A stretch of 64,000 nt of DNA from Burkholderiaceae bacterium (GTDB lineage: Bacteria > Pseudomonadota > Gammaproteobacteria > Burkholderiales > Burkholderiaceae_C), in the NCBI GenBank assembly GCA_035764445.1, contig DASTZF010000248.1, positions 8,668 to 72,667 of the forward strand. Reading direction: 5' to 3'. The translations under genes were made by a program, and so were the position numbers. The first letter of the stretch is position 1; each line of letters opens with the position of its first letter. The notes below the pieces were generated by a model, which saw only the letters and a list, made by a program, of their open reading frames with translations, was not told the origin of the DNA and made no database searches. Below, piece after piece: positions 4,386 to 64,000 of the stretch.

Positions 4386-4471
4386 GGTGCTGGCCGCGGC
4401 AGCCGTGCGGGCGCCGCCACGGATTCGTTTGAGGGAGCGCGATTCTGCGGTGTCTTCAGCCGCCGCGTCGG

Positions 4472-16090: not shown

Positions 16091-17287
16091 GTGTTCGAGC
16101 ATGTCGAGCCCTATGCGGGCGATCCGATCTTCGCGTTGGTCGATGCCTTCAACGCCGACCCCCGGCCGCACAAGGTCAACCTGTCGATCGGCATCTACTT
16201 CGACGACGAAGGCCGCATCCCCGTGCTCGACACCGTGCGCACCGCCGAGTCGCGGCTGCTCGCGCAGGGCGGCGCCAAGCCGTACCTGCCGATGGAAGGC
16301 GCGGCCGATGCGCGGCGCGCTGTGCAGGACCTGCTGTTCGGGCCGCAGCACGAGGCGCTCACGTCGGGTCGCGTGGCGACGATCCAGTCGGTCGGCTCCA
16401 GCGGCGGGTTGAAGGTCGGCGCCGACTTCCTGAAGCGCTGGTTCCCGGGCAGCGGCGTCTGGATCAGCGACCCCAGCTGGGACAACCACCGCTCGATGTT
16501 CGAGGGCAGCGGCTTCACGGTGAAGACCTACCCGTACTACGACACCGCCAGCGGCGGCGTGCGCTTCGACGAGATGCTGGCGGCGATCGAGCAGCTGCCG
16601 GCACGCAGCATCGTGCTGCTGCACGCCTGCTGCCACAACCCGACCGGGGTCGACCTCACGCATGCGCAGTGGGACCGCCTGATCCCAGTGCTGAAGCGTC
16701 GCGAGCTGAGCGCCTACCTCGACCTCGCGTACCAGGGCTACGGCGACGGCCTCGACGAAGACGCCTACGCGGTGCGCGCGCTGGCCAGCTCGGGCGCCGC
16801 GTTCGTGGTCGCCAATTCATTCTCCAAGAGCATGAGCGTGTACGGCGAGCGCTGCGGCGCGCTGTCGGTGGTGTGCCCGAGCGCGCGCGAGGCCGAGCTG
16901 GTGCTCGGGCAGCTCAAGCTCACGGTGCGGCGCATCTACTCGAGCCCGGCGATCCACGCCGCCGGCCTGATGGCGCTGGTGCTCGGCGACCCGCAGCTGC
17001 GCGCGCAATGGGAAGGCGAGGTCGCACAGATGCGCGACCGCATCCGCGCGATGCGCAAGGCGTTGCACGAGGTGCTGAACGCACGCGTGCCGGGGCGCGA
17101 CTTCGGCTACCTGCTGACGCAGCGCGGCATGTTCAGCTACACCGGCCTCTCCGCAGCGCAGGTAGACCGCCTGCGCGAGGAGCACGCGGTCTACCTGATC
17201 CGCTCCGGGCGTATGTGCGTCGCGGGCCTCAACCGCGGCAACGTCGAGCGCACCGCGCGGGCCTTCGCTGCCGTGCTGGCGGGCTGA
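16091..17287 (+). CDS. tyrB: Aromatic-amino-acid aminotransferase
   Basis: It aligns by eye with E. coli TyrB from the first residue ([13 protein letters not shown] vs MFQKVDAYAGDPI), and carries [14 protein letters not shown] (PLP Lys) and GRMCVAGLN. The start is GTG 16091, 6 nt after GGAG; the track ORF begins at TTG 16085. Confidence 0.92.
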
Positions 17288-44363: not shown

Positions 44364-45515
44364 TCACTCGGTCCGCTGTCGCCTGAGCGCACCGGCGCCG
44401 ACCGAACCCACGATCCAAGCCGCGGCGGCGGCTAGCCCGAGCGTGGCGTGAACGCCCGCCACGCCGTACGCCCCGAAGCGATCGACGACGAAGCCGAACG
44501 CCAAGGTCAGCGCCGCGTAGCCGGCGGCCGCACGCAGCGGCGACGCGTCCTGCTGGCCGCGCCGTGCCGGCGCCCACAACTGGCCGCCCCACGCGATGCC
44601 CCACGCCGCGCCGTGCGCGAGCGCGAGGCCGAGCAGGTCGTACGGTGCGGCCGCCCAGGCGACGCACGCGGCACCGAGCACGAGCAGCAGCGCGCACAGC
44701 GCCGACAGCCGGGATGGCGACCAGGTCGCGATCGTCCGGCGCAGCAGCAGCACCGGGCCGAACATGGCGGCGAGGTGCAGCAGCACGAGTGCCTGCGGGG
44801 GCACCGACTGCGCGCGGCACCACGCGACCATCCACGGCAGCGCGGCCATCATCGGCAGCATCGTCAGGCCGGCCAGCAATGTCGGCCACTGCATGGTGTC
44901 GCGCCAGGCGCCCACCGGCCAGGCGGGCAGCGAGCAGTCGAACAGGCCCGCGCGGCAACCGGGCGCGCGCGGTCGGAGGTCGGCGCCGCGCTGCAGCGTG
45001 GCCAGCACGAGCGCGACCGCCACCACGAATCCGCCCAGGCGCAAGGCGAGCGTGGCCACATCGGCCACGTCCCCGAGCGCCAGCCCCGCGCACAACGCGC
45101 CGAGGCTCGCCGCCACGATCGGCGGTGCCGGCGCAGTATGTTGAGCGAGCCGCAACCCGCGCACGACGCCCGAGGCCAGCGCCGTCAGCGCCGCCCACCC
45201 GAGCAGTGCGAGCCACACCGCAGTGATGCCGCTGCCGCGTGCCGCCAGCCACATCGCCAGCGCGGTGACCACCGCGGCGAACAGCAGCGCCGCGGCACGA
45301 GCCCCGGCACGCAGATCACCGCCGGTGGCGACGCTGGCTGCCGCACCCAGCGCAAACAGCCACACAGCGACCAGTGCGAACCCGCTGGCCACGCCGGGAG
45401 CGAACGCCATCGCGAAGCTGCCGATTCCGACCCAGCCGGCGACCAGCAGGCCCCACGCACACGCGCGCGCCGCGGTCAACCGCAGCGACGGGATGCGTGC
45501 CGGGGGTTCGTTCAT
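44364..45515 (-). CDS. Hypothetical polytopic membrane protein (about 383 aa, about 10-12 TM)
   Basis: The start ATG 45515 overlaps the stop of the MocA-like gene (ATGA, 45512-45515). The product consists of Ala/Leu/Gly/Trp-rich hydrophobic segments throughout, and I recognise no family motif. Confidence 0.65.
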   Translation of the reverse strand: MNEPPARIPSLRLTAARACAWGLLVAGWVGIGSFAMAFAPGVASGFALVAVWLFALGAAASVATGGDLRAGARAAALLFAAVVTALAMWLAARGSGITAVWLALLGWAALTALASGVVRGLRLAQHTAPAPPIVAASLGALCAGLALGDVADVATLALRLGGFVVAVALVLATLQRGADLRPRAPGCRAGLFDCSLPAWPVGAWRDTMQWPTLLAGLTMLPMMAALPWMVAWCRAQSVPPQALVLLHLAAMFGPVLLLRRTIATWSPSRLSALCALLLVLGAACVAWAAAPYDLLGLALAHGAAWGIAWGGQLWAPARRGQQDASPLRAAAGYAALTLAFGFVVDRFGAYGVAGVHATLGLAAAAAWIVGSVGAGALRRQRTE

Positions 45516-46204
45516 GCGACCGTCGTGGCCAGCGACGCCGGCCACTGCAGCGTGTGGCCGGTGCTGGCGGCGAAGCGCTCGAGGTCCTCGGGCGTGTCGA
45601 TGTCGAGCCGGTAGCGCCGGTTGTCGGTGTCGAACCAGCGCACGCGCTGCGGATGCGCGAGGCGCCACTGGCGGCACGCGGCGTCGGCCTCGCCGGCCAG
45701 CCACTCGTCGCGCAGCGCGGCGTCGAAGATCACCGGGTTGCCGGGCAGCGGCTCGCCACCGTCGACGCTGACGCGCGGCACCACCATCGACGCATCGCCG
45801 CGCTTCTTGAAGGCACCGATCAGCGCGACGATGTCCTGCGAATCGATCAAGGGCTGGTCGGCCAGCGCGACGATCACCGCGTCGACCCGCGGCGACAGAG
45901 CCTGCAGGCCGATGCGCACCGACGACGCCTGGCCATCATCGGGCGACGGGTTGTGAACAATGGAGATCGGGAACTGCCCGATCGCCGATTCGATCGCCTC
46001 GGCATGGTGGCCGAGCACGACCACCAGGTCGTCGACGCCGGCGCCCGACAGCGCGACCAGTTGGCGCATCGCCAGCGGCACGCCACCGAGCTCGAGCAGC
46101 GCCTTCGGCCGGCCACCGAGTCGCGACCCGGCGCCGGCCGCCAATAGCACCGCGCCCACCGTCGTGCGGCTGTACAGGCCGTTGGCTTTGAGCAGGCAAC
46201 CCAT
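45512..46204 (-). CDS. MobA/MocA-like nucleotidyltransferase (molybdenum cofactor cytidylyltransferase-like)
   Basis: VLLAAGAGSRLGG.PKALLEL is the NTP_transf_3 glycine-rich loop, and ALADQPL is also present. The gene sits inside the cox accessory region. Confidence 0.85.
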   Translation of the reverse strand: MGCLLKANGLYSRTTVGAVLLAAGAGSRLGGRPKALLELGGVPLAMRQLVALSGAGVDDLVVVLGHHAEAIESAIGQFPISIVHNPSPDDGQASSVRIGLQALSPRVDAVIVALADQPLIDSQDIVALIGAFKKRGDASMVVPRVSVDGGEPLPGNPVIFDAALRDEWLAGEADAACRQWRLAHPQRVRWFDTDNRRYRLDIDTPEDLERFAASTGHTLQWPASLATTVA

Positions 46205-46219
46205 GATGAAGTGGTCCTT

Positions 46220-47356
46220 TCAGTGCAACGCGTCGATCAGCCGCGGCAGCACCGCGCGGATGCTCGCCAGATCGGCGCCCGGCGCCAGCAGGTCGAGGTG
46301 CGGCAGCGCCGCCTGCATGCCCTGGCTGAGCGGCGCGTAGCCGGCGTGACCAGCCAGCGGATTGAGCCACACGATGCGCCGTGCGCGCCGCTTCAGCTGC
46401 GCCAGCGCTTGCGACAGCATCTGCGGCTCGCCGGTGTCGTAGCCGTCGCTCATCACGATCACCGCGGTGCGCGCGTGCACCAGCCGCGGCGCATGCTCGC
46501 GGTTGAAGCGAGCCAGGCACTCGCCGATGCGCGTGCCGCCGCCGAAGCCCTGCGCGATCAGATGCAGCCGCTCCTGCGCGCGCCATGCGTCGGGATCGTG
46601 CAGCGCCTGCGACACCGCGGTGATGCCGGTGTGGAAGATGAAGCTGTGGACGTCGGCCCACTCGGCACTCAGCGCACGGGCCAGCCGCAGGTAGAAGAAG
46701 CTGTACAGCGCCATCGAACGGCTGACGTCGATCAGCAGCACCAGCCGCGGCCTGACGCGACGGCGATCGCGCCATGCCAGCCGGAACGGCGTGCCGCCGC
46801 TGGCCACGCTGTAGCGGATCGTCGTGGGCAGATCGAGCGCGCGGCCGGCGCGCGTATGCGCATGGCGGCGCAGGCGGATCGGCTTCAGCTCACGAGCCAA
46901 GCGACGCATCAACGCTTCGATCTCCAGCGCGTGCTCGCGTTCGGTCAGCGCCCGAAAGTCGGTCGAACTCAGCACCGCTTCGCGACTGGCCGCCCGGCGC
47001 GGCCGAGCGCTGTCGTCGTCGAGTTCGTCGCCGTCGGCCGCCCCGCCGGGCTGTTCGCCGCTCAAGCCGCGCTCGGCATCGCGCCGCTCGGGCTGCTGCC
47101 AGCGGTTGGCCGGCAGGAACCAGGCGTCGAACAATTCGGGAAAGCGCCGCCACTCGTCGGCGCGCCCGCACAGCAGCGCCTGCAGGCTCAGGCGCAGCAC
47201 CTGTGGATCGAGCACGCCGACGCGCTCTGCGGTGCGCAGGACCTGCACCGCGTCGCCACCGCCGCCGGCGAAGCCGTTGGCGCGCAGGAAGGTCGGGAAC
47301 CCGGCGAGCCTGTCGACCGCCAGCGTCTCGAGCGGCGATGCAGCGGGGCTCAACAC
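46220..47356 (-). CDS. coxE: VWA-domain CO-dehydrogenase maturation protein CoxE-like
   Basis: LVLLIDVSRSMALYS is the MIDAS DxSxS motif, and VIVMSDGYDTGE...RIVWLNP is typical VWA_CoxE sequence. The start is inferred at GTG 47356, overlapping the coxD stop. Confidence 0.85.
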   Translation of the reverse strand: MLSPAASPLETLAVDRLAGFPTFLRANGFAGGGGDAVQVLRTAERVGVLDPQVLRLSLQALLCGRADEWRRFPELFDAWFLPANRWQQPERRDAERGLSGEQPGGAADGDELDDDSARPRRAASREAVLSSTDFRALTEREHALEIEALMRRLARELKPIRLRRHAHTRAGRALDLPTTIRYSVASGGTPFRLAWRDRRRVRPRLVLLIDVSRSMALYSFFYLRLARALSAEWADVHSFIFHTGITAVSQALHDPDAWRAQERLHLIAQGFGGGTRIGECLARFNREHAPRLVHARTAVIVMSDGYDTGEPQMLSQALAQLKRRARRIVWLNPLAGHAGYAPLSQGMQAALPHLDLLAPGADLASIRAVLPRLIDALH

Positions 47357-48243
47357 GTGGCCGCCAACCTCGCGACCACTTCGCGCGGGAATGCCGCGCG
47401 ATCGTCGCGCGTCTTGATCAACGCGCTCAGCGTGTCGACGATGCGCTCGGCGCCGTCGACGTCGATCGTCGACACGCCCAGCCGCAGCAAGGCCGCGGTC
47501 CAGTCGAGCGTCTCGGCGATCCCCGGGCGCTTCTGCAACTCCATCCGCCGCACGCCCTGCACGAAGGCGACGATCTGCTGCGCCAATGCAAGCGCGACCT
47601 CGGGCGCCTTCTTGCGCACGATCGCCAGCTCCTTGTCGTAGTCGGGATAGTCGATGTACTGGTACAGGCAGCGCCGGCGCAGCGCATCGGACAGCTCGCG
47701 TGTGCCGTTGGAGGTGATCACCACCCATGGTCGCTGCGTCGCATGCACGGTACCGAGCTCGGGGATCGACATCTGAAAGTCCGACAGCAGCTCGAGCAGG
47801 TAGGCCTCGAAGGCTTCGTCGGCGCGGTCGATCTCGTCGATCAGCAGCACCGGCGCCGCGTCGGCGGTGATCGCCTCGAGCAGCGGCCGCTTCAGCAGGT
47901 AGCGCTCGGAGAAGATGTCTTCTTCCTTGCGCTGCAGGCTGCGCTCGTCGTGCTCGAGCAGCTTGATCGCCAGCAGCTGGCGCTGGTAGTTCCACTCGTA
48001 CATCGCCGCGTGCGCGTCGAGCCCCTCATAGCACTGCAGGCGGATCAGCCGCGTCTGCCGTATCTCGGCCAGCACCTTGGCGACTTCGGTCTTGCCGACG
48101 CCGGCATCGCCCTCGAGCAGCAGCGGGCGCTGCAGGTCCTGCATCAGCAGCAGCGCGGCGGCCAGCGGCGGCTCGGCGATGTAGCCGGCCTGTGCGAGCT
48201 GTTGCTGCAGCGTGGCCAGCTCGATCGCTCGAGCCGAGGTCAT
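47350..48243 (-). CDS. coxD: MoxR-class AAA+ ATPase CoxD-like
   Basis: The start ATG 48243 overlaps the coxG stop (ATGA). The motifs are LLLEGDAGVGKTEVAK (Walker A), VLLIDEIDRADE (Walker B) and RRRCLYQYIDYP. Confidence 0.9.
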   Translation of the reverse strand: MTSARAIELATLQQQLAQAGYIAEPPLAAALLLMQDLQRPLLLEGDAGVGKTEVAKVLAEIRQTRLIRLQCYEGLDAHAAMYEWNYQRQLLAIKLLEHDERSLQRKEEDIFSERYLLKRPLLEAITADAAPVLLIDEIDRADEAFEAYLLELLSDFQMSIPELGTVHATQRPWVVITSNGTRELSDALRRRCLYQYIDYPDYDKELAIVRKKAPEVALALAQQIVAFVQGVRRMELQKRPGIAETLDWTAALLRLGVSTIDVDGAERIVDTLSALIKTRDDRAAFPREVVARLAATC

Positions 48244-48854
48244 GACTTCTTCGCCGCGAACAGCGAGCTGAACCAGCCTTTGATCACCGCCCACAGCAAC
48301 GCGAGACCGTTGAGCGGCTTGGGCTCGGCCGCAGCGGCAGTGGCCTGTGTAGCGGCCGGCGCGCCAGACCCACCGGCCGATGGCGCAGCCGCCGCCTGCA
48401 TCGCTTGCACCTTGGCTGCGAAGTTCGCTGCGAACTGGCCGAGGATCTGATCGGACACCGGCCCCATCATGCGACCGCCGAAGGTGGCGACCTTGCCGCT
48501 CATCGTCACTTCGCTGGTGCCCATCAAGTTGCAGCTCGCGGCGTCGACCGCCTCCGCGCGCGCCTTGAGGTCCATCGACGCCGCCGAGCCGCCGGTGGCA
48601 TCGGTGCCCTTGGCGAACAGGTGCAGGCTCCTGGCCGTCGTGTCGATGCCCTTGACCTCGATCTCGCCGCGGAACGACAGGTTGGCCGGCCCGAGCTTCA
48701 CCGCCACCGTGCCCTTGTAGTGCTGCTCGTCGACCTTCTCGGTGATCTTGGCACCGGGCATGCACGACGCGACGCCTTCGATGTCCTGCAGCAGCGCCCA
48801 CGCGGTGTCGGCCGACGCCGGCATCGGGTACGACTTTTCGAGCTGAACCTTCAT
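48240..48854 (-). CDS. coxG: SRPBCC-fold CoxG-like protein with an Ala-rich linker and a hydrophobic C-terminal tail
   Basis: The start is ATG 48854. MKVQLEKSYPMPASADTAWALLQDIEGVASCMPGA is the CoxG family N-terminus, and the tail reads LNGLALLWAVIKGWFSSLFAAKKS. Confidence 0.85.
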   Translation of the reverse strand: MKVQLEKSYPMPASADTAWALLQDIEGVASCMPGAKITEKVDEQHYKGTVAVKLGPANLSFRGEIEVKGIDTTARSLHLFAKGTDATGGSAASMDLKARAEAVDAASCNLMGTSEVTMSGKVATFGGRMMGPVSDQILGQFAANFAAKVQAMQAAAAPSAGGSGAPAATQATAAAAEPKPLNGLALLWAVIKGWFSSLFAAKKS

Positions 48855-48867
48855 CGTTCTTGGACCG

Positions 48868-51300
<2,433 letters not shown>

Positions 51301-51329
51301 GGCGTGTCTCCGTTGGATGTGCGGGTCGG

Positions 51330-51821
51330 TCAGGCGGCGGTCTGCGCGGCGGCGAGCTTCTTGGCCGCCGACTGCACCGCCTTGACGATGTTCTGGTAAC
51401 CGGTGCAGCGGCACAGGTTGCCGGCGATGCCGTAGCGGATCTCCTGCTCGCTCGGATTGGGGTTCTCCTTCAGCAGCCGGTAGGTGCGCATCAGCATGCC
51501 AGGCGTGCAGTAGCCGCACTGCAGGCCGTGCTCCTCGTGGAACGCCTGCTGCACCGCGTGCAGCACGCCGCCTTGCTCGAGGCCCTCGACGGTCAGCACG
51601 TCGGCGCCGTCGCATTGCACCGCCAACATCGTGCACGACTTGACCGACATGCCGTCGACGTCGACCGTGCAGGCGCCGCAGTGCGACGTCTCGCAGCCGA
51701 TGTGCGGCCCGGTGTGCGCCAGCCGCTCGCGCAGCGTGTAGATCAGCAGCTCGCGCGCCTCGACGTCGACCGCGACCGGCTTGCCGTTGAGCTTGAACGA
51801 GACCTTGTGGGTGTTCGCCAT
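51330..51821 (-). CDS. coxS: CO-dehydrogenase-type small subunit, two [2Fe-2S] clusters (CoxS)
   Basis: The cluster motifs are [12 protein letters not shown]...KSC and QCGYCTPGM...NLCRCTGY. Confidence 0.95.
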
Positions 51822-51837
51822 GGTGTTCTCCGCCGGC

Positions 51838-52704
51838 TCAGGGCTTGGCGCGCGACAGCGCGGTCTGCAGCGCGCGGCGCGTCATCTCGCCGGCCATCGC
51901 GGTCTTGTAGTCGGGACTGCCGCGCGGGCAGTGCGTCGGCGAGCACGCGGCCATCGCCAGCCGCGCCGCCTCGTTGAGGCTCGTGTCGTCGATCGCCTTG
52001 CCGACCAGATATTGCTCGGCCTGGGTCGCCTTGATCGGCGTCGCGCCGACGTTGGTCAGCGCGATCGCCACCTTGGCGACCGTACCGCCCTTCATCTGCA
52101 ACAGCACGGCCGCGGCGGCGGTGGCGAAGTCGCCGGTCTTGCGCTTGAACTTGCTGTAGCTCCAGCCGCTGCCGGCCGCCGGAATCGGGATGCGGATCTG
52201 CGTCAGGATCTCGTCGGCCTGCGCCTGCGTCGAGTACAGCCCGAGGAAGTGGCCGTTGACGTGGACCACGCGCTCGCCCTTGGGGCCGGTGAGCACGAAC
52301 GACGCGTCGAGGGCCAGCATCAACGCCGGATGGTCGTTGGCCGGATCGCCGTGGCAGATGTCGCCGCCGATCGTGCCGCGGTAGCGCACCTGCGGGTCGG
52401 CGATCTGGCTCACGCCCTCGGCCAGCAGTGGCACCTTCTCGGCCACCAGCTTGGAGTTCAGCAGTTCGTGCTCGGTGGTCATCGCACCGATGCGGATCTC
52501 GCCGCCCGCCTGCGCGATGCCGCGCAGGTCGGCGATCTTGCCGAGATCGATCAGCGCGCTCGGGGTCGCGAAGCGCAGCTTCATCATCGGCAGCAGGCTG
52601 TGGCCGCCGGCCAGCAGCTTGGCGTCGGGGCCCAGGCTGCCGAGCAGCTTGACCGCGTCGGCGACCGAGCGCGGCGCGTGGTAGTCGAAACCGGCGGGAA
52701 TCAT
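51838..52704 (-). CDS. coxM: CO-dehydrogenase-type medium FAD-binding subunit (CoxM)
   Basis: The product reads [16 protein letters not shown]...[15 protein letters not shown] and [18 protein letters not shown] (FAD_binding_5 / CO_deh_flav_C). Confidence 0.95.
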
Positions 52705-52869: not shown

Positions 52870-53670
52870 TCAGCGGTCAGCGGCTGCTTCGGCGATGCCA
52901 AGCCGCTCGAGCAGCCGCGGCACGCTGGTGCGCGCCACCGGCAGGCTGCGCTCGTCGCCTTGCAGCTTGAGCATCACCTTGCCGTCGTCGCGCACGATCT
53001 GCTCGGCGTAGTCGAGGTTGGCCATGTAGCTGCGATGGATGCGCAGGAACGAGTTGCTGTCGAGGCGACCCTCGAGGTCGCCGATTGTCAGGTTGCAGAA
53101 GCCGGAGCTCTGGCCGGTGTGCACCCAGGTGTAGTGGCCTTCGGCGCGAACGTAACGCACGCTGGCGGCGTCGACCAGCACGATGCGGTTGCCCGCCACC
53201 GTCGGGATCTTCAGCAGCTGGCGCTTGGTATCGGGCCGCTGCGCAGCGCCGTCTTCACGGATCACGGCATCGGTGATGTCGTAGAACACCAGCGTGTGGC
53301 CTGCGGTGTCGCCGCGCTCGTCCGACATCTTGCTCACCTTGATCAGCAGCACCCGCTCCGGGATGTTGATGATCATCGTCATCGGCGGCGGGTTGCTCAC
53401 CGGGCATTCGGCCTGGTCGATCAGGAACTTCACCTTCGACTGCGAGCGCTCCGGGTGGAACGACAGCACCATTCTCTGGAACGGCCGCTTGTCCTCCACC
53501 GGCAGCATGCGCCGCGCGAAGCTGTTCATCGCCACCACCTTGAGGTCGCGGTCGAGCTGGACCAGCCCGACGTCGCTGCGTTCGAGCAGGTACAGAGGAC
53601 TGCCGGCGGCTACCCGTGCATCCACGGTCGATGGTGTCCTGAAGGTCGGTGCGATTGCCGATTGAAGCAT
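52870..53670 (-). CDS. One-component regulator: PAS-like sensor domain plus LytTR DNA-binding domain
   Basis: The C-terminal LytTR domain reads RIVLVDAASVRYVRAEGHYTWVHT......L.DLEGRLDSNSFLRIHRSYMANL. The N-terminal PAS-like region reads GLVQLDRDLKVVAMNSFARRML...HTLVFYDIT. I prefer ATG 53670 as the start (GGGGG upstream, and it leaves an 85-nt divergent intergenic region). The track ORF extends to 53733. Confidence 0.8.
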   Translation of the reverse strand: MLQSAIAPTFRTPSTVDARVAAGSPLYLLERSDVGLVQLDRDLKVVAMNSFARRMLPVEDKRPFQRMVLSFHPERSQSKVKFLIDQAECPVSNPPPMTMIINIPERVLLIKVSKMSDERGDTAGHTLVFYDITDAVIREDGAAQRPDTKRQLLKIPTVAGNRIVLVDAASVRYVRAEGHYTWVHTGQSSGFCNLTIGDLEGRLDSNSFLRIHRSYMANLDYAEQIVRDDGKVMLKLQGDERSLPVARTSVPRLLERLGIAEAAADR

Positions 53671-53755: not shown

Positions 53756-55102
53756 ATGGCCCTGAAGGACGCGCGCGGCAATCTGCTCGGCACCGACTCG
53801 CCGGCCGCGCGCGATGCGGTGGAGATGGCGCTGTGGCGCATGATGTCCTTCTACGACCCGCCGTTGGCCGACCTTGACCGCGCGATCACCGACGATCCGC
53901 ACTGGCCGCTGCCGCACGTGATGAAGGCGGGCTTCCTGCTCAGCCTGACCGAGCCGTCGCAGGTGGCCGACGCGCGGGCGCACCTGGAGCGCGCGCGACT
54001 GCTGCTGGCCGCCGCGCCGACGCGCGAGCGCGCGCACTGGGACGCCACCCAGCGGGTGCTCGAAGGCCGCTGGCACGACGCCTGCACGCTGTGGGACGAG
54101 TGGCTGCTCGACCATCCGCGTGACGCGCTGGCGCTGCAGTGGGCGCACCTGTGGGACTTCTACCGCGGCGACTCCGCCAGCCTGCGCGCGCGCCCGGCGC
54201 GTGCACTGCCCGAGTGGGACCACGCCGATCCGCTGTATCCGCACGTGCTGGCGCTGCACGCGTTCGGCCTCGAGGAGTGCAACCTGCAGGTGCAGGCCGA
54301 GGACGCGGGCCGCCGGGCGCTGTCGCTCGACGCGCGCTCGCCGTGGGCGATCCACGCGGTGGCGCACGTGATGGAGATGCAGGGCCGCTTCGACGATGGT
54401 GCCGCGTGGCTGCGCCACCACCAGCGCGCCTGGGCCGAAGGCAACGGCTACGCCTGCCACCTGTGGTGGCACCTGGCGCTGTTCAGGCTGGAAGGGCTCG
54501 ACGACACCGGCGTGCTGCGCCTGGTCGATGCGCACCTGTCGAGCGACGCGTTGCAGGTGACGCTGCAGCGTGTCGACGCGGCGGCGATCCTGTGGCGGCT
54601 GCACCTGCTGGGCGTCGACGTCCGCGCTCGCTGCGCCGATCTGGTCGCGCAGTGGGATCTGGCCGACGACAGCGTCGGCTACTACGCGTTCAACGATGTG
54701 CACGCGCTGCTGGCGATGCTGGCGGCAGACGACGGCGCGCGCGCCGAACACTGGGTCGCGCGCTGCGCCGCACGGGCGCTGGCGGCCGACGACGCGCCGC
54801 GTGCGAACCACGCGATGGCTCGCGAGGTCGGCGCACCCCTGATGCGCGCGTTGCTGGCGCTGGCCCGAGGCGATGCCGCCGCCGCGGCGCAGGCGTTGTA
54901 CGCGGTGCGTGGCAAGGCGCAGCGCTTCGGGGGCAGCCACGCGCAGCGCGACCTGATCGACCAGACGCTGCTGGCGGCCGCGGCGGCCGACCCCGCTGCG
55001 CGCTCGCTCGGCCGCGCAGTGCTCAACGAGCGCCGCACCGCGCGCCCGCTGACGCCGCTGACGCGTTGCTGGGGCGAGCGGCTCGGGGTGACGATGAGCT
55101 GA
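53756..55102 (+). CDS. Tetratricopeptide-repeat protein (TTC38-like)
   Basis: The 448-aa product is all-helical. HVMKAGFLL...W.HLWDFY.GD...HAVAHVMEMQGR...LWWHLALF resembles the TTC38 family. Confidence 0.7.
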   Translation: MALKDARGNLLGTDSPAARDAVEMALWRMMSFYDPPLADLDRAITDDPHWPLPHVMKAGFLLSLTEPSQVADARAHLERARLLLAAAPTRERAHWDATQRVLEGRWHDACTLWDEWLLDHPRDALALQWAHLWDFYRGDSASLRARPARALPEWDHADPLYPHVLALHAFGLEECNLQVQAEDAGRRALSLDARSPWAIHAVAHVMEMQGRFDDGAAWLRHHQRAWAEGNGYACHLWWHLALFRLEGLDDTGVLRLVDAHLSSDALQVTLQRVDAAAILWRLHLLGVDVRARCADLVAQWDLADDSVGYYAFNDVHALLAMLAADDGARAEHWVARCAARALAADDAPRANHAMAREVGAPLMRALLALARGDAAAAAQALYAVRGKAQRFGGSHAQRDLIDQTLLAAAAADPAARSLGRAVLNERRTARPLTPLTRCWGERLGVTMS

Positions 55103-57736: not shown

Positions 57737-58741
57737 TTACGTCACGCAGCCGGCGTCGACGGTGGCGACCGCGCCGACCGCCACCGGCGCTGGGATGCGG
57801 TAGCCGTAGCGCACCGCGGTGAGCTCGGCCAGGATGCCGATCGCGATTTCGGGCGGCGTGCGCGCACCGTTCTTCAGCCCGACCGGGCCGTGCAGCCGCG
57901 TGAACTCTGACTCCTGCATGCCGAAGTGTTCGATCAGGCGCTGCTTGCGCTTGGCCTGGTTGGCGCGCGAGCCGATCGCCCCGACGTAGAACGCGGGGCT
58001 GCGCAGCGCTTCCATCAGCGCCAGGTCGTCGAGCTTCGGGTCGTGCGTCAGCGCGATGATCGCGGTGTGGCCGTCGACCTTCAGCGTGCTGAGCAGGTCG
58101 TCGGGCATCTGGCGCGACAGCGTCGCCCCTTCGATCGCGAAGCCGGCGGCGTACTCGTCGCGCGGGTCGCAGACGATCACCTCGTAGTCCAGCGCGCTGG
58201 CCATCTGCGCCAGGTACTGCGTCATCTGGCCGGCACCGATCAGCACCAGCCGCCAGCGCGGGCCGTGGTGCGTCGTCAGCGTCGTCTCGGTCAACTCCAG
58301 CTCGTCGGTGTCACCGGCGGGCTCGAGCGTGACATCGCCGGTCGCGATGGTGAGCACTCGCCGCACGCGTTCGCCTTTGGACAAGCGCTCGAGCAACTCG
58401 CCGATGCGCGTGCGTGGCAGCACAGGCTCGAGCACCAGCTCGATCAGGCCGCCGCACGGCAGCCCGAAGCGGTGGGCGGCGTCGGCGTCGATGCCGTAAC
58501 GCACGACCCTGGGCTTGCCTTCGGCCAGCACGCCTTCGCGCGCCTTGTCGATCAGGTCGTCCTCGATGCAACCGCCCGACACCGACCCGGTCACCATGCC
58601 GTCGTCGCGGATTGCCACGACCGAGCCAGGCGGCCGCGGTGCCGAGCCCCACGTCCGCGTGATCGTGCCGAGCACGACGCGGCGACCGTCGGTGCACCAC
58701 TGCGCCACCTGGCGCAAGACTTGAAGGTCGACGTTGTCCAT
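57737..58741 (-). CDS. XdhC/CoxI-family molybdoenzyme maturation factor
   Basis: The start is ATG 58741. VVLGTITRTWGSAPRPPGSVVAIRDDGMVTGSVSGGCIE is the XdhC_CoxI domain, and RLVLIGAGQMTQYLAQMASALDYEVIVCDPR is the XdhC_C Rossmann domain. Confidence 0.9.
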   Translation of the reverse strand: MDNVDLQVLRQVAQWCTDGRRVVLGTITRTWGSAPRPPGSVVAIRDDGMVTGSVSGGCIEDDLIDKAREGVLAEGKPRVVRYGIDADAAHRFGLPCGGLIELVLEPVLPRTRIGELLERLSKGERVRRVLTIATGDVTLEPAGDTDELELTETTLTTHHGPRWRLVLIGAGQMTQYLAQMASALDYEVIVCDPRDEYAAGFAIEGATLSRQMPDDLLSTLKVDGHTAIIALTHDPKLDDLALMEALRSPAFYVGAIGSRANQAKRKQRLIEHFGMQESEFTRLHGPVGLKNGARTPPEIAIGILAELTAVRYGYRIPAPVAVGAVATVDAGCVT

Positions 58742-58977
58742 GTTCGGATCTCCTGAAGGGCGGGCCGCGCCTGCGCACGACCACACCCAACCTCGGGCAT
58801 GCATCATGCGAGCGCCCGTCGAGGCTGAAGTTCTACCACGGAGCTGGCATCCGGTCCGTTGCCCGGGGCGTGTCGCATTTCCGTAGCGGCCGGCATCGAC
58901 GCCAAGGACCGGGCCTGTCGTGGGTGGCCGCATTTTGTTGATCTGGTCGGCTTGCCGCTGGCGCCATCGCCGGGACA

Positions 58978-60387
58978 ATGCGCGCCATGCCCGTTCCTTT
59001 GTCCGAGCGTCTGCGCGCGTGGCTGCAAGCCCTGGAGGCCGGTCTGCTCGAGCGCGAAGCGGCAGTGCGGCTTGCGCTGCTGGCGGCGCTGGGCGCTGAG
59101 CACGTGCTGCTGATCGGGCCCCCAGGCACCGCCAAGAGCGAGTTGGCGCGCCGGCTGCACCGCGCGTTTGCCGGAGCGAGGTATTTCGAGCGGCTGCTGA
59201 CGCGCTTCTCGACACCCGAGGAGCTGTTCGGTCCCTTATCGTTGAAGGCGCTGGAAGAAGACCGCTACGAGCGCCAGATCGACGGCTTCCTGCCCACCGC
59301 AGGCATCGCCTTCCTCGACGAAGTGTTCAAGGCCAACTCGGCGATCCTCAACGCGCTGCTGACCTTGCTCAACGAGCGCGAGTTCGACAATGGCGTCACA
59401 CGCCTGCGAGTGCCGCTGGTGTGCGTGGTCGGCGCCAGCAACGAGGTGCCGAGCGATGAGGCGCTGCACGCGTTCTTCGATCGCTTCCTGGTGCGCGTGC
59501 CGGTGGCGCCGGTGGGCGACGAGTCGTTTCCCGCGCTGCTCGCGCTGCGGGAGGGCGCAGCCGAGCCGCCGGCGCCGTTCACCACGGCCGAACGCGAGGC
59601 GATCGCTCAGGCAGCCGAGCGGGTCCACCTCAGTGACGAGGCCGTGCTGGCCTGCACGGCGCTGCGCCACTGGCTGGCGGCGCGCTCGCGCGCGCTGTCG
59701 GACCGGCGCTGGCGACAGTGGGTCGCCCTGATGCGAGTGGCTGCCGCCAGCGAAGGGCGCGACACGGTCGACGTGCTCGACCTGTGGCTTGCACCGTACG
59801 TGGCCAGCGGCTCGCCGCAGGAAGTCGGCGAACTGACTCAGTGGTTCGAGGCCGAGTGCCTGGATGCCGCGCCGCAGGACGCGTCGTGGCTGTCGTGCGC
59901 CGTGCAGGCGTTCGAGAAGCAGCTCGAGATCGAGCAATCGGCGCGCGACGACCCCGATGCCGCCAACGCGGCGGGCAAGCTGGCACTCGCGCGCGCGATC
60001 GCCGGTCCGGGTGCCGCCGACGCTACGACGGGAATGATGCGCATCGTCTCGGCCGAACTCGAGGCACAGCAACGCCGCCGCTACAGCTCCGTGCACATCG
60101 CGGCACGAGTCGCCCAGGTCGACGAGATCATCGGGCAGGCCGCGGCGGCGCGCGACGAAGTGCAGGCGCGCGACGCGGCGCTGGCCGCGCGCCTTGGCGC
60201 GCGGCTGTGGGTGCCCTCGGCGACGACCGATCGTCTGTGCGCCGCTGCAGCACACACGCTGGCGGTGCTCGACGCGCTGATCGAACGGTTGCAGTGCGTG
60301 CGCGAGGGCTTTGCCGGGCTGCCGCTCGATCCCGCAGCGGCGGGCGAGGCGCCGTCGCCGGTCGCCCTCGACACACTGGCCGCATGA
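58978..60387 (+). CDS. ravA: RavA-like MoxR-class AAA+ ATPase
   Basis: The first ~170 aa align by eye with E. coli RavA: LLIGPPGTAKSELARRL (Walker A, 59116-59139), RFSTPEELFGPLS, FLDEVFKANSAILNALLTLLNEREF (Walker B / sensor) and VGASNE.P. The ATG at 58987 is an alternative start. Confidence 0.9.
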   Translation: MRAMPVPLSERLRAWLQALEAGLLEREAAVRLALLAALGAEHVLLIGPPGTAKSELARRLHRAFAGARYFERLLTRFSTPEELFGPLSLKALEEDRYERQIDGFLPTAGIAFLDEVFKANSAILNALLTLLNEREFDNGVTRLRVPLVCVVGASNEVPSDEALHAFFDRFLVRVPVAPVGDESFPALLALREGAAEPPAPFTTAEREAIAQAAERVHLSDEAVLACTALRHWLAARSRALSDRRWRQWVALMRVAAASEGRDTVDVLDLWLAPYVASGSPQEVGELTQWFEAECLDAAPQDASWLSCAVQAFEKQLEIEQSARDDPDAANAAGKLALARAIAGPGAADATTGMMRIVSAELEAQQRRRYSSVHIAARVAQVDEIIGQAAAARDEVQARDAALAARLGARLWVPSATTDRLCAAAAHTLAVLDALIERLQCVREGFAGLPLDPAAAGEAPSPVALDTLAA

Positions 60388-61874
60388 TGATGCGCATCGC
60401 GATCGACGCGCCGTACGAGCGGCTCGAATCGTTGCCGCATCCGCTGTGGCTGCCGAGCCTGGTTGCCAGCGCTGGCGAGCGCGCGCAACGCTTGACGGAT
60501 ACGCGGCGTTGGCTCGACGCGTTGCAGGGCGGTCATCTGCCGCCGGTCGATGCCGATTTCGGCGACGCGGCGGCCAGCGCGCCGCTGCGCACGGTGGTCG
60601 GCGAGCTCGGCCTGGCGGCGCTGGCGCGTGGCGTGCCCGCGCTGGCCGAGCAACTGCTGCGCACGCTGTTATGGCACCTCGACCGCATCGTCGACCTGCA
60701 GCCGCGGCTAGCGCGCGAAGCGGCCATCGACGAAGTGGCCGCGTGGTTCCGCACCACATGGGAGGAGCAGGCCAGCGGACTGGATGAAGACCTGGCCCTC
60801 CTTCAGGGTCTGGGCGATCTCACCAGCCTGCGCTGGGACTCGCTGCGCGGGCATCTGACTTCACGGTCCTGGGCGGCCGCACGGCGCGCCAGCGAGTGGC
60901 TGCGCCAGTTGCCCGAACTGGCCGCGCTGATGCGCCGGCTCGGGCGCAGCGAGCGGGCGGTCGCTGTGCCGCCACGCGCCGCGCCACGCCGTGCCAACAC
61001 AGGGGCGCCGCCGCAGGCGTTGCGCGCGATCGAGACCCGGTTGCCCGACGCGCCTGGCGAAATCACCGGCGTGCGCTTCTCGTCGCGCCCCGAGCGCATG
61101 CTCGCCGGCGAGGCGGTGATGCTGCACCACCCGGTGCTGCGCAAGCTGTGGCGGGCGCGGCATGCCGAAGCGCGGCTGCTGAGTTGGGAGACCGAGGCCG
61201 TCCTGACCGACTGGCGCCTCGATCCGCGGGCCGCGCGGCCGCAGCCGGCCACGCCTGAAGCCGAAGCACTGGAGCGCGGACCGATCATCGTCTGCCTCGA
61301 CACCTCGGGCTCCATGCGTGGCGCGCCGGAGAACATCGCCAAGGCCACGGTGATCGCCGCGCTGCGCGCGGCGCACGAGGCGCGCCGGGGCTGCAAGCTG
61401 ATCGCCTTCGGCGGGCCCGACGAAGTGATCGAGCGCGACCTCGGCCACGGCGAAGCCGGCCTGCAGGCGCTGCTCGACCTGATGGCGCAGGCCTTCGACG
61501 GGGGCACCGACATCCAGACTCCGATCGAGCGCGCGATCACCTGCGTGCACGACGCGCGTTGGGCGAGCGCCGACCTGCTGATCGTCAGCGACGGCGAGTT
61601 CGGTTGCGTGCCAGGCACGCTCGAGCGGCTGCAGCGAGCGCGAGCCGAGCTGGGCCTGCGCGTGCAGGGCGTCCTGGTCGGCGATCGCGAGACGATGGGG
61701 CTGCTCGAGGTCTGCGACGAGATCCACTGGGTGCGTGACTGGCGGCGCTACGTGGAGAGTCCAGGCGGCGAAGCGCGCGGCCATTCGCCGGTGCACAGCA
61801 AGAGCCTGACGGCGCTGTACTTTCCCAACGCGCTGTCGGCGCACGCGGCGCGCCACGTCCAGCGGCCGCGATGA
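60384..61874 (+). CDS. viaA: ViaA-like VWA-domain protein
   Basis: The start overlaps the ravA stop (ATGA at 60384-60387). The C-terminal VWA domain has the MIDAS motif IIVCLDTSGSMRG (DTSGS at 61299-61313), plus GGTD and LLIVSDGEF. Confidence 0.85.
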   Translation: MMMRIAIDAPYERLESLPHPLWLPSLVASAGERAQRLTDTRRWLDALQGGHLPPVDADFGDAAASAPLRTVVGELGLAALARGVPALAEQLLRTLLWHLDRIVDLQPRLAREAAIDEVAAWFRTTWEEQASGLDEDLALLQGLGDLTSLRWDSLRGHLTSRSWAAARRASEWLRQLPELAALMRRLGRSERAVAVPPRAAPRRANTGAPPQALRAIETRLPDAPGEITGVRFSSRPERMLAGEAVMLHHPVLRKLWRARHAEARLLSWETEAVLTDWRLDPRAARPQPATPEAEALERGPIIVCLDTSGSMRGAPENIAKATVIAALRAAHEARRGCKLIAFGGPDEVIERDLGHGEAGLQALLDLMAQAFDGGTDIQTPIERAITCVHDARWASADLLIVSDGEFGCVPGTLERLQRARAELGLRVQGVLVGDRETMGLLEVCDEIHWVRDWRRYVESPGGEARGHSPVHSKSLTALYFPNALSAHAARHVQRPR

Positions 61875-62788
61875 GCCGCCGCTCGGCCGCTCCGAAGGGG
61901 GCTCGCACCGCAGTGCGAAGCACGGAGGTTCCTCAGACGCGCCGCCGCTACGCCGAGGAGGCGCTCGCCCGGCTCGAGGCCTTCGCGGCGGCGGGCTCGC
62001 CGCTGCCGCGCGTGCGCGCGCTGCATCTGCCACCCAAGCCGACACCGGGCGATCTGCGCGGTGAGTTCTGTGCCCTCGAGCTCGACGACGGCGCGATCGG
62101 TCTGTCGTACGTGCTGCTGGGCGACACCTGGGCCGAGTTGGCCCGCCAGCCGCAGCGCCTGGCGCTCGGCGGTCTCGACGCGCTCGCGGTGGCGCGGCGC
62201 TATGTGAGTGCCGATCGGCTGCAGCACACCGTGGGCCTGGCGGCGCTCAATGCTCTGACGCGCTGCCTGTTCGACCGCGCCGGCTTCGTGCCGTCGAGCA
62301 GCGCCGACTCGATCGGCAACCTCGACCCGCAACCCGGCGAGACGGTGGGCATGATCGGCTACTTCGCATCGCTGGTGCCACGCATCACCGCGCGCGGCGC
62401 TCGGCTCGTGGTGATCGAGCTGCGAGAAGACCTGGTGGGCGAGCGCGACGGCGTGCGCGTGACGCTCGACGCCGACGAGCTGAGACAGTGCGACAAGGTG
62501 CTGTCCACCGGCACGCTGCTGCTCAACGACACGCTCGATCGCATGCTCGGCCTGTGTGTGCGTGCGCAGCGCTTCGCGCTGATAGGCCCCAGCGTCGGCT
62601 GCCCGCCCGACCCGCTGTTCGCGCGCGGCGTCACGCTGCTCGGCGGCAGCTGGATCAGTGATCCGGCGGCGTTCGTCGATGCCCTTCTCAGCGCAGCGCC
62701 CACCGCAGGGGCAGCGCACAAGTTTGCGCTGTTGCGCGAGGACTATCCGGGCTGGGACGCGCTGTTGCGGCGCGCGGCGCGCGCCTGA
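61871..62788 (+). CDS. DUF4213/DUF364-type protein (Rossmann-like, 'putative heavy-metal chelation' family)
   Basis: The start overlaps the viaA stop (ATGA at 61871-61874). VGLAALNALT and VGMIGYF..L........LVVIE...........L.......VLSTGTLLLNDTLD....... resemble the DUF4213 N-terminal and DUF364 C-terminal domains. The assignment is by recollection only. Confidence 0.7.
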   Translation: MSRRSAAPKGARTAVRSTEVPQTRRRYAEEALARLEAFAAAGSPLPRVRALHLPPKPTPGDLRGEFCALELDDGAIGLSYVLLGDTWAELARQPQRLALGGLDALAVARRYVSADRLQHTVGLAALNALTRCLFDRAGFVPSSSADSIGNLDPQPGETVGMIGYFASLVPRITARGARLVVIELREDLVGERDGVRVTLDADELRQCDKVLSTGTLLLNDTLDRMLGLCVRAQRFALIGPSVGCPPDPLFARGVTLLGGSWISDPAAFVDALLSAAPTAGAAHKFALLREDYPGWDALLRRAARA

Positions 62789-62792
62789 GTGC

Positions 62793-63167
62793 CTAGCTTG
62801 ACGTGCGCCGAGGGCGCCAGTGGCGCACGTGGCGCGGCGCGTGCGAGACCAGGGCCGAGACGAAGACGACGATCCAGAACGCCGGCAGCGAGCCATCCGC
62901 ATCGAGCGCCAGCCACGCCACCGCGGCCAGCTTCAGTAGCGAAACGAACCCCGCGAGCTCGCTGAAGCGCATGCGCGCATCCAGCGTCTCGATGGCCAGC
63001 AGGGCGATCCCGCTGGCCAGCACGATGGCCGCTGCCGGCAGCCGCGCCAGCGGCGCGCCCAGCAGCGCGGCGCCGAGGGCGACCACGGCAGCCAGGTGCG
63101 ACGCACGCAGCACGATGCCGAGCCAGCGACGCCAAGCGGCGGGCTTGTCCGAGAGCTCAACCACCAC
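62793..63167 (-). CDS. Hypothetical small membrane protein (about 124 aa, 3-4 TM)
   Basis: The start is inferred at GTG 63167, overlapping the upstream stop. Hydrophobic segments are WLGIVLRASHLAAVVALGAALLGA, AAAIVLASGIALLAI, GFVSLLKLAAVAWLAL and FWIVVFVSALV. Confidence 0.5.
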   Translation of the reverse strand: MVVELSDKPAAWRRWLGIVLRASHLAAVVALGAALLGAPLARLPAAAIVLASGIALLAIETLDARMRFSELAGFVSLLKLAAVAWLALDADGSLPAFWIVVFVSALVSHAPRHVRHWRPRRTSS

Positions 63168-63468
63168 CGCGCTGCATGAAGAGGTCGAAGTAGCGCATGA
63201 AGGCCACGCGCGCCTCCTGCGCGACGTCGTGGAAGCGGTAGCGCACGGCCATCCGCGGCGTCTGCACCAGCGCGATCCGGCGCGGCGCCAGCACGGTCCA
63301 TCGCAATTCGAGGGTGCCCGCGCCGATGCGCACGCGCGCGCTCGCACTGTCGGCTGCAAGCTCGAGCGCATGCGCACCGACCGCGCCGGGCAGACTGTCG
63401 AGCCATTGCGCCAGCGCGCAGCCGTGCTCGCGCTCGAACGCCTCGGTGTAGCTGCCCGGGTCGTGCAC
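63157..63468 (-). CDS. Hypothetical protein (about 103 aa) ending in Gly-Gly-Gly
   Basis: The frame is open from 63540, and I infer the start at GTG 63468. The C-terminus reads ...FMRYFDLFMQRGGG. It is co-directional and tightly packed with the ThiS/MoaD-like gene. Confidence 0.5.
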   Translation of the reverse strand: MHDPGSYTEAFEREHGCALAQWLDSLPGAVGAHALELAADSASARVRIGAGTLELRWTVLAPRRIALVQTPRMAVRYRFHDVAQEARVAFMRYFDLFMQRGGG

Positions 63469-63493
63469 CGCTGACGGCGAGTTCGGCCGGCCT

Positions 63494-63748
63494 TCAGCCG
63501 CCGGCGATCGGCGGCCAGATCGCGAGCACATCGCCTTCAAGCAGCGCGCGTTGCGCGCGCTCGGCCGGCGGCACGAAGACGCCGTTAATCAGCACCAGGT
63601 GCACCAGCTTCGGCGGCAGGTGGAACGGCGCGACCGCGTCGACCACGGTCGAGTTCGCCGGCACGTCGAGCGTGATCTGGTTGCTGCGACGCTGTTCCAC
63701 CGGCAGGTAGTCGGTCAGCATCGCGTGGAGCTTCAACGTGATCTGCAT
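63494..63748 (-). CDS. ThiS/MoaD-family sulfur-carrier (ubiquitin-like beta-grasp) protein
   Basis: The 84-aa product reads MQITLKLHAML......VDVPANSTV.D........VLINGVFV.......LLEGDVLAIWPPIAGG, with the diagnostic C-terminal Gly-Gly. Confidence 0.85.
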   Translation of the reverse strand: MQITLKLHAMLTDYLPVEQRRSNQITLDVPANSTVVDAVAPFHLPPKLVHLVLINGVFVPPAERAQRALLEGDVLAIWPPIAGG

Positions 63749-63810
63749 GCCCGATCATGCCGCGTCCTGGCCGCCGGCGTGAATCTGGTGGCGCGGCGCT
63801 GCGCCGACTC

Positions 63811-64000
63811 AACGCCCGACCAGGCCGTGGCGCGCCTGCTGTTGGGCGCTGTCGAGGTACGCCTGCATCAGCAGCGTGGGATCGTCGAGCAGCTTGTCTT
63901 TCCAGGCGCCGATGGCGACCTCGCCCTCGACCAGCCCGCGCATCACGCCGATGTGCTCGGTCCAGCCGATGCTGTTGCAGCCGACCAGGCGATCGCCCTT
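63811..64000 (-). CDS. 3' end of an unidentified CDS; the N-terminus lies beyond the window
   Basis: The hand-translated frame is open from 64000 to the TGA (complement of 63811-63813): ...KGDRLVGCNSIGWTEHIGVMRGLVEGEVAIGAWKDKLLDDPTLLMQAYLDSAQQQARHGLVGR. I could not assign a family. Confidence 0.45.

Follow-up and report, generated by a model that had tools for sequence, protein, structure and literature searches.

A RavA-ViaA-like gene pair with an optional DUF364 gene beside an aldehyde oxidoreductase operon in a Burkholderiaceae bacterium: a candidate maturation module

What RavA, a MoxR-type AAA+ ATPase, and its von Willebrand factor A (VWA) partner ViaA do for the cell is debated even in Escherichia coli, where the LdcI cage, the Nuo and Frd complexes, membrane lipids and aminoglycoside uptake have each been put forward. 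The same question is raised by a 64,000-nucleotide (nt) stretch of DNA from a Burkholderiaceae bacterium (GenBank assembly GCA_035764445.1, contig DASTZF010000248.1, positions 8,668 to 72,667 of the forward strand; hereafter, the window), in which a RavA-like and a ViaA-like gene are followed by an overlapping third gene that codes for a DUF4213/DUF364 protein. A first-pass annotation, made from the letters alone, read the three as a chelatase-like machine for cofactor insertion, with the DUF364 protein as the subunit that binds metal and substrate. We show herein that DUF364 is an optional extra and not a fixed third subunit, and that the most consistent neighbour of the pair among its relatives is the aor operon, often accompanied by TupA-like, ModE-like and XdhC genes. 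We favor the reading that the module is a MoxR/VWA accessory or maturation system for the tungsten enzyme AorABC, in which DUF364 helps where it is present, and give it a probability of roughly 0.4. That the module is tied to tungsten and aldehyde oxidoreductase (AOR) in any way is, in our judgment, an even bet, while it is doubtful that the RavA-type pair with its facultative DUF364 is a system dedicated to maturing AOR-family tungstoenzymes, whether by cofactor insertion or by complex assembly.

Our confidence in the anatomy of the module, meaning the operon and the identities of its proteins, is high. Its parts are as follows:

58987..60387, + strand: gene 1, a RavA-clade MoxR AAA+ ATPase without the LARA domain (Pfam, phmmer, and an AlphaFold2 model searched with Foldseek)
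60384..61874, + strand: gene 2, a ViaA-like VWA protein of 496 amino acids (aa) (VWA_2, VWA_CoxE, ATGA overlap with gene 1)
61871..62788, + strand: gene 3, a DUF4213+DUF364 protein of 305 aa (Pfam, AlphaFold2 model, ATGA overlap with gene 2)
58952..58979, + strand: a candidate sigma-70-type promoter, with TTGCCG at 58952-58957, a 16-nt spacer and GACAAT at 58974-58979 (conservation)

All three genes are on the forward strand, and the ATGA overlaps, at 60384-60387 between genes 1 and 2 and at 61871-61874 between genes 2 and 3, are where the first-pass annotation had placed them. A scan with gene 3, taking one genome per species, gave 80 loci of 55-82% identity, mostly from Burkholderiales and Rhodocyclales (handles such as L001 are our own), and tblastn together with clustering of open reading frames (ORFs) recovered the order RavA>ViaA>DUF364 in about 50 of them. 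Overlaps of -4/-4 nt recur in most of these triad loci, and are therefore conserved rather than accidental. The triad is also carried by pAZKH, a plasmid or chromid of Azoarcus sp. KH32C, where its members are annotated merely as "AAA family ATPase", "VWA domain-containing protein" and "DUF364 domain-containing protein"; RavA-like matches on other plasmids were uninformative. With about 50 loci of Burkholderiales and Rhodocyclales in addition to pAZKH, the three-gene linkage is thus kept outside this genome, as had been expected of it. It is not, however, "hard-wired" as had been claimed. In the DUF364 tree, 19 loci with adequate upstream sequence have DUF364 without the RavA-ViaA pair, and they fall into at least four clades interspersed with the triad clades. 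Conversely, context look-ups of RavA- and ViaA-like proteins of the window's clade found DUF364 in only two of eight cases. Protein searches with the three genes were filled by relatives of at least 60% identity, and reached the context of distant relatives to a limited extent. An unbiased metagenome scan, anchored on ViaA and covering the window's own clade (61 loci), found DUF364 in 15 of the 44 pairs with at least 900 nt downstream of ViaA, and no DUF364 in the other 29.

These counts bear on one alternative, in which DUF364 is itself the client, remodelled or reactivated by RavA-ViaA as Rubisco is by CbbQ/CbbO, and another client takes its place where DUF364 is absent. The gene adjacent to a MoxR/VWA pair is often its client, a 4-nt overlap implies matched expression, and DUF364 is more conserved across clades than the pair is (55-63% versus 41-50% identity). 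Nonetheless, a DUF364 that persists without the pair and a pair that persists without DUF364 make a poor fit to a dedicated couple of enzyme and activase, and the pair still stands beside aor where DUF364 is missing. We consider this explanation improbable.

The neighbour that recurs with the pair is the aor operon. In Aromatoleum aromaticum, AorABC is an aldehyde oxidoreductase with a tungsten-bis-pyranopterin cofactor, and AorD and AorE are MoaD-like maturation factors of the tungsten cofactor that raise both AOR activity and tungsten content (PMC6365974, PMC9295118). Just past gene 3, the window holds the tail of such an operon on the reverse strand:

62793..63167, - strand: a small predicted membrane protein of ~125 aa at the end of the aor operon (cluster c3; ORF clustering)
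63157..63540, - strand: an aorE-like gene for a small protein ending in GGG (58% identity to the gene after aorD in L089)
63494..63748, - strand: an aorD-like gene of MoaD/ThiS fold (Pfam ThiS, Ub-Mut7C; 65% identity to the aorD-like gene of L089)
63809..64000, - strand: the 3' end of an aorC-like gene, the flavin adenine dinucleotide (FAD) subunit (83% identity over 48 aa to the C-terminus of the L089 AorC-like protein)

The rest of aorABC would lie past the end of the window, and the aorC-D-E tail converges on the triad. Of 16 RavA loci of the window's clade (at least 60% identity), 10 have aor genes within 10 kb, nine a ModE-like regulator (ModE-N helix-turn-helix plus PBP_like) and nine XdhC. 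Two unlinked loci in a 5-Mb genome would, by a rough estimate, fall within 10 kb of each other with a chance of ~0.4%. Kinship of the genomes inflates such proximity counts. Even so, the proximity is kept through at least four arrangements, which argues for selection. A convergent aor operon directly follows DUF364 in the window, L007 and L013; it directly follows ViaA, with no DUF364, in L088 (Ideonella aquatica), and L085 has the L088 order with a pyrroloquinoline quinone (PQQ) dehydrogenase gene inserted. On a single strand, L089 reads RavA>ViaA>TupA-like>179-aa gene>aorA>B>C>D>E, and the order in L121, L130, L131 and L135 is similar; the TupA-like gene of L089, which scores 222 bits against a tungstate-binding TupA model with a cut-off of 400, occupies the position of DUF364. 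In L091 and L093, the pair is divergent from aorA and shares an intergenic region with it. In the metagenome sample, 11 of the 30 loci of at least 8 kb have aor and/or TupA-like genes, and four loci have a co-directional TupA>aorA>aorB. In Rhodocyclales-type loci, aor is nearby in 4 of 38 (L024, L054, L063 and L067), and no betaproteobacterial plasmid with an AorB-like protein appeared among the matches listed, all of which were below 60% identity.

Several features around aorA were seen in passing. The 179-aa protein encoded between the TupA-like gene and aorA in L089 (12823-13362, +) has no NCBIfam match. A perfect palindrome, GCTATGCAGATCATTGCATAGC, with a GATGATT centre in L089, stands ~60-90 nt upstream of aorA in L085 (~16970-17000), L088 (~16200-16230) and L089 (~13400-13430), and may act as operator for the aor genes. 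An operator common to the aorA and ravA promoters was considered and set aside, the palindrome not being found upstream of ravA. In L093, a sigma-54-like GGCAT-N5-TTGCAT is seen in place of the palindrome, next to the gene of a GAF-HTH_8 regulator. In the metagenome contig L091, XdhC-family and MobA-like genes follow aorE on the same strand (2902-4709, -), so that XdhC-type factors may form part of the maturation set of aor as well as of that of xanthine-oxidase-family enzymes.

How might such a module act on AorABC? Known MoxR/VWA pairs serve CO dehydrogenase (CoxD/CoxE), NO reductase (NorQ/NorD) and Rubisco (CbbQ/CbbO) (PMC7159879). In these systems, the VWA protein grips the client through its metal-ion-dependent adhesion site (MIDAS) and the AAA+ ring remodels it (PMC7159879; PMC9976466), and E. 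coli RavA-ViaA acts on fumarate reductase, a flavin/iron-sulphur enzyme (PMC7159879). By analogy, the ViaA-like protein would dock via its MIDAS on apo-AorB or on an AorAB(C) assembly, and a hexamer of the RavA-like protein would use ATP to hold or remodel this client. Apo-AorB might thereby be kept open while the tungsten-bis-pyranopterin cofactor is inserted; alternatively, the step assisted might be the assembly of the AorAB filament capped by AorC. The part given to DUF364 is speculative. As a facultative helper, it could bind an adenosyl-type ligand, for example S-adenosylmethionine (SAM), or another nucleotide cofactor, and could provide or convert a small ligand at some step connected with the supply of tungstate/molybdate or of pterin. 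It would be dispensable or replaceable, as the TupA-like gene standing in its place in L089 would suggest.

A number of observations weigh against this proposal. It is inferred from gene neighbourhoods only, and part of the aor association may be synteny inherited among related Burkholderiales. As many as 34 of the 38 Rhodocyclales-type triads are not near aor, and their neighbours are unrelated and vary widely. Within the window's clade, pairs standing alone were found in L090, L092 and many metagenome loci, and the context of an AOR-family enzyme in Azospirillum contains neither RavA-ViaA nor DUF364. Moreover, A. evansii matured recombinant AOR when aorDE alone were added (PMC9295118), so that no requirement for the module is known. 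Finally, 16 loci, counting both triads and DUF364 alone, lie with genes of nitric oxide (NO) metabolism or denitrification (NsrR, NnrS, hemerythrin and NirS).

The last of these points favors another explanation, that the pair has the generic role of the enterobacterial type, modulating either the membrane or anaerobic respiratory complexes when oxygen is low or NO imposes stress, and that its adjacency to aor and DUF364 is incidental or acts at the level of a regulon. In E. coli, ravA-viaA is Fnr-controlled and acts on flavin/iron-sulphur respiratory complexes (PMC9489729), and RavA is by far the closest solved relative of gene 1. Of 27 upstream regions, five have an FNR-type box (TTGAT-N4-ATCAA with at most two mismatches), whereas 1.8% of shuffled controls do; the box lies 40-41 nt before the ATG in four loci and 113 nt before it in the fifth (L024). 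Globin or hemerythrin-Crp genes adjoin the triad in L001 and L084. On the other hand, gene 1 lacks LARA, which E. coli RavA uses to bind LdcI and lipid; the window has no good FNR box; and the association with aor, TupA-like and ModE-like genes in the window's clade is far above the rough chance estimate and survives rearrangements. We regard this explanation as unlikely. As for FNR or NO control of the window operon itself, it was rejected, since the best match to an FNR box there has five mismatches, the level expected by chance, and the enrichment is confined to some Rhodocyclales loci.

The surroundings of these loci are worth recording in their own right. In L001 (Parazoarcus communis) and L084 (Azoarcus sp. 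KH32C), a truncated-haemoglobin gene flanks the triad (flank coordinates: L001 5190-6779 and 11844-12254; L084 11393-11860). L001 also has a divergent gene for a hemerythrin-cNMP-Crp regulator on its flank and an FNR-type box 41 nt before the ATG of the ravA-like gene. In one clade (L029, L037, L041 and L045), a lone DUF364 lies among hemerythrin-like, Rrf2/NsrR and NnrS genes, with nirS, cytochrome c and TonB receptor genes also near it in L029, L037 and L045; this setting is one of nitrosative stress and denitrification, distinct from the aor/tungsten setting.

The proteins themselves bear on which of these explanations can apply. Gene 1 matches bpMoxR (9e-62), AAA_5 (8e-28) and AAA_lid_8 in Pfam, has GPPGTAKS as Walker A and FLDE as Walker B, and is apparently an active MoxR ATPase. 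Its likeness to E. coli RavA, previously judged by eye, is borne out: RavA (3nbx) is its best match among solved structures (phmmer 9e-60, residues 2-322), the aligned region taking in GPPGTAKS and FLDEVFKANSAILNALLTLLNEREF, and is the sole solved relative found by sequence. The NCBIfam RavA model (NF010054), whose equivalog cut-off is 681 bits, gives gene 1 a score of 240, the alignment being confined to residues 5-272 of the protein and positions 4-280 of the 498 in the profile. By these matches, gene 1 falls within the RavA clade without being an orthologue of RavA as the curated model defines one. Its AlphaFold2 model, built from 32 homologues, retrieved RavA first in Foldseek (~1e-14), then MoxR 2r44 (5e-6) and BchI (1g8p, 3e-5). 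LARA, the domain of E. coli RavA that mediates LdcI and lipid binding (PMC9489729), is absent from gene 1: there is no sequence match to RavA past residue 322, and residues 303-446 are modelled as wholly helical, with five long helices. A weak Pfam match to Mg_chelatase (28.9 bits) is restricted to 40 residues at Walker A (residues 26-65). A role in anti-phage defence was also considered, bpMoxR deriving from conflict systems, and was discarded: PADLOC had no significant match to the products of genes 1 to 3, and neither a beta-propeller nor an effector gene accompanies them.

Gene 2 was described as having a C-terminal VWA domain with the MIDAS motif DTSGS, like ViaA, and this description holds. 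It matches VWA_2 (residues 301-405) and VWA_CoxE in Pfam, and the MIDAS is complete (DTSGS...T...D), with the elements DTSGS, GGTD and SDGE in the translation. The NCBIfam ViaA model (NF008230) aligns with residues 151-404 at 130 bits, under its cut-off of 500. The N-terminal ~295 aa have no Pfam match, and a domain homologous to the N-terminal (NTV) domain of ViaA was not found, the first 150 residues matching nothing in Pfam or NCBIfam.

The assignment of gene 3 to DUF4213 and DUF364 was likewise upheld by the profile search: DUF364 (PF04016) matches at 2.5e-27 (95.7 bits, cut-off 23) and DUF4213 (PF13938) at 1.8e-7 (31.8 bits, cut-off 23.5). The AlphaFold2 model (mean confidence, pLDDT, 90.2) has an enolase-N-like cap and a Rossmann-like domain, and Foldseek matched it to the DUF364 crystal structures 3l5o and 3npg (E 1e-14 to 1e-15, template modelling (TM) score 0.6-0.78), followed by enolase-superfamily proteins at low TM scores of 0.2-0.36. 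The DUF364 subfamily coupled to RavA-ViaA comprises 97 representative clusters at E<=1e-30. Across 57 diverse DUF364 representatives of 27-55% identity, the Rossmann motif GMxGxF (160-165), N127, N219, D247, K284 and E183, an acidic residue at the end of the strand after the Rossmann glycine loop (strand 2), are conserved, and no Cys or His is. This pattern would fit a binder of an adenosyl cofactor, and in itself it is no support for a metal-thiolate chelator. Two confusions were cleared away in this connection. DUF364 is not a diverged XdhC, although both have a cap and a Rossmann domain (hhalign probability 0.2%), and the "DUF364" of the defence/HEPN literature is actually DUF3644.

The family's label of "heavy-metal chelation" goes back to gene context from STRING in a 2010 structure paper, in which DUF364 was associated with transporters of Mo, W and V (PMC2954201). 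The sole member to have been assayed is Orf5, which converts 4''-methyl-SAM by cyclisation into methyl-azetidine carboxylate (PMC12930334). Hence a further alternative, that DUF364 makes a small molecule (an azetidine, an aminocarboxypropyl-type product or a metallophore) and that RavA-ViaA is merely a co-regulated neighbour. Besides Orf5, it draws on the GMxGxF loop and E183, which are family-wide and appear to be as in adenosyl-cofactor binders. However, identity to the solved DUF364 proteins is only 17-23%, so that the substrate cannot be transferred; no genes for non-ribosomal peptide synthetases, radical SAM methylases or exporters are conserved around the triad; and translational coupling points to something beyond mere neighbourhood. 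We hold this alternative to be decidedly improbable.

The chelatase-like machine of the first-pass annotation, an obligate assembly of a RavA motor, a ViaA VWA subunit and a DUF364 subunit that binds metal and substrate and inserts the former, fares worse still and is highly improbable. Its appeal is plain enough, in that the translational coupling of the three genes is kept in ~47 loci, the logic of AAA+ plus VWA is common to BchI/BchD, and archaeal DUF364 genes adjoin Mo/W transporters; in Methanococcus maripaludis, for instance, a DUF364 gene lies within the modABC operon and is cofit with nifH, polar effects not being excluded there. Nevertheless, a subunit that is missing from 29 of 44 metagenome pairs and from six of eight look-ups in the window's clade, and that stands alone in 19 loci, can hardly be obligate. 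Moreover, the gene 3 model strongly matched only the two DUF364 crystal structures in Foldseek and no BchH/CobN or class II chelatase, DUF364 has no conserved Cys or His, gene 2 has no AAA-type Pfam match that could stand for the AAA-like N-terminal domain of BchD, and the one DUF364 enzyme assayed cyclises a SAM derivative. Three defining features of chelatases were looked for and each was lacking, which places the module outside the AAA+ chelatase family.

The start of the operon also required revision. Gene 1 had been read from ATG 58978, which gives 469 aa, but ATG 58987, 9 nt downstream and in frame, is the start used in relatives and in the gene model that NCBI gives for the identical protein (P0241, 466 aa, beginning at M4), and ATG 58978 falls within the -10-like hexamer GACAAT. 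Gene 1 thus most likely starts at 58987, 7 nt past the hexamer. By eye, the layout TTGCCG-N16-18-GACAAT/GAGAAT, with an ATG after 6-7 nt, recurs in the window, L002, L007, L008, L009, L085, L088 and L090, although the candidate scores under the threshold of the consensus scan; GAAAAT is a further form of the hexamer in relatives. It suggests a leaderless or near-leaderless mRNA made from a conserved promoter. The same scan detected no internal promoter-like or terminator-like site in 58600-63000, and the three genes form one operon, probably transcribed from that promoter. A TTGATC half-site (58938-58943), possibly a degenerate site of the CRP/FNR family, stands just 5' of TTGCCG-N16-GACAAT, with a like layout in L007 and L091.

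On the far flank of gene 3, the stop codon of the small membrane protein gene is separated by 4 nt from that of gene 3. Its product, scanned within the longer ORF 62793-63377, matches no family in Pfam or NCBIfam, and the c3 protein occurs in 15 related loci, usually after an aorE-like gene; it also adjoins DUF364 in loci without aor (L009, L041 and L047). The aorE-like gene probably starts near 63468, giving ~103 aa, and its homologues have 98-101 aa. The aorD-like gene, which in related loci always directly follows aorC, had been noted as "ThiS/MoaD-like"; the fold is as described, and its identity is that of aorD in a tungsten aldehyde oxidoreductase operon. Upstream, the divergent XdhC gene is present as noted:

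57737..58741, - strand: an XdhC-family molybdenum-cofactor insertion factor (XdhC_CoxI, XdhC_C), a divergent neighbour outside the operon

It scores 167 bits against NCBIfam XdhC_rel_AOR, under the cut-off of 350, and orthologues of ~80% identity hold the same position in L002, L005, L007, L010 and L086.

The cox cluster noted nearby is also there (coxMSL, coxG, a coxD-like AAA_5 gene and a coxE-like VWA_CoxE gene at 46220-52704, or 45512-52704 with a MobA-like gene). Having its own CoxD/CoxE pair, it does not need the RavA-ViaA module, and service of the latter to the cox cluster is unlikely. Gene context does lend some support to the more general suggestion of a tie to metal-cofactor enzymes. 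A PAS-LytTR regulator gene (52870-53625, -), directly upstream of coxM on the same strand, may control this CO-dehydrogenase-like cluster. Two well-supported ORFs without a Pfam match at E<=1e-4 were seen nearby, one of 393 aa where the cox cluster ends (44364-45545, -) and one of 448 aa beside the PAS-LytTR regulator (53756-55102, +).

If the module is indeed dedicated to the maturation of AOR-family tungstoenzymes, it would be the first such chaperone for them, and would provide a clear physiological client for RavA-ViaA and the first Mo/W-related role for the DUF364 family. A clade without LARA that stands beside one defined enzyme operon makes for a cleaner client hypothesis than has been available for RavA-ViaA. 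A dedicated chaperone that inserts the tungsten-bis-pyranopterin cofactor was not found in the sources searched, where only the MoaD-like AorD and AorE are discussed; none of the tungsten-enzyme papers listed mentions MoxR, a 2026 classification of tungsten oxidoreductases mentions neither MoxR, VWA nor a chaperone, and no literature linking DUF364 with MoxR, RavA or VWA was found. The maturation logic of MoxR-VWA pairs is known; a pair coupled to DUF364 and to the genes of a tungsten AOR is undescribed in the searchable literature. Better maturation of AOR would aid biotechnology, for example acid reduction with H2. DUF364 itself numbers several thousand proteins, one of which has been assayed, and its Mo/W-linked context here agrees with the archaeal copies embedded in modABC. 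If the context link is historical synteny only, what is left is a commonplace MoxR-VWA operon, annotated in generic terms, that carries one gene more.

The module can finally be set beside the systems that it resembles. With BchI/BchD/BchH and CobS/CobT/CobN, it shares an AAA+ motor, a VWA/MIDAS protein and a third protein. Unlike them, its motor is distant from BchI (3e-5, versus ~1e-14 for RavA), gene 2 lacks the N-terminal AAA-like domain of BchD/CobT, and in place of the ~140-kDa porphyrin-binding subunit BchH/CobN there is a 305-aa DUF364 that is dispensable in most relatives. Gene 3 is like the DUF364 proteins Dhaf4260 (3L5O) and PH1506 (3NPG), with both Pfam domains above cut-off and a confident model that superposes, and unlike Orf5 in that the window triad lies in no natural-product gene context.

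The likeness to E. coli RavA-ViaA is closer. The AAA+ module aligns with that of RavA (38% identity over 324 columns in Foldseek), Walker A, Walker B and the lid are kept, RavA leads the other AAA+ structural matches by ~9 orders of magnitude, gene 2 has the long non-VWA N-terminal part and the C-terminal VWA domain with MIDAS of ViaA, and the ATPase and VWA genes overlap within one operon. The differences are that both window proteins score far under the NCBIfam equivalog cut-offs, that the C-terminal 145 residues of the ATPase are all helical in the place of LARA, that a third overlapping gene, DUF364, is present in a subset of relatives, and that the partners in the window's clade are aorABCDE, TupA-like, ModE-like and XdhC genes rather than LdcI, Nuo and Frd. 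From CoxD/CoxE, NorQ/NorD and CbbQ/CbbO, the window pair differs in belonging to the RavA clade and not to the CoxD or CbbQ/NorQ subfamily, and in that its presumed client, a tungsten AOR, has no MoxR partner reported in the literature searched. Like those pairs, however, its MoxR and VWA genes stand beside the genes of a metal-cofactor enzyme, in this case aor.

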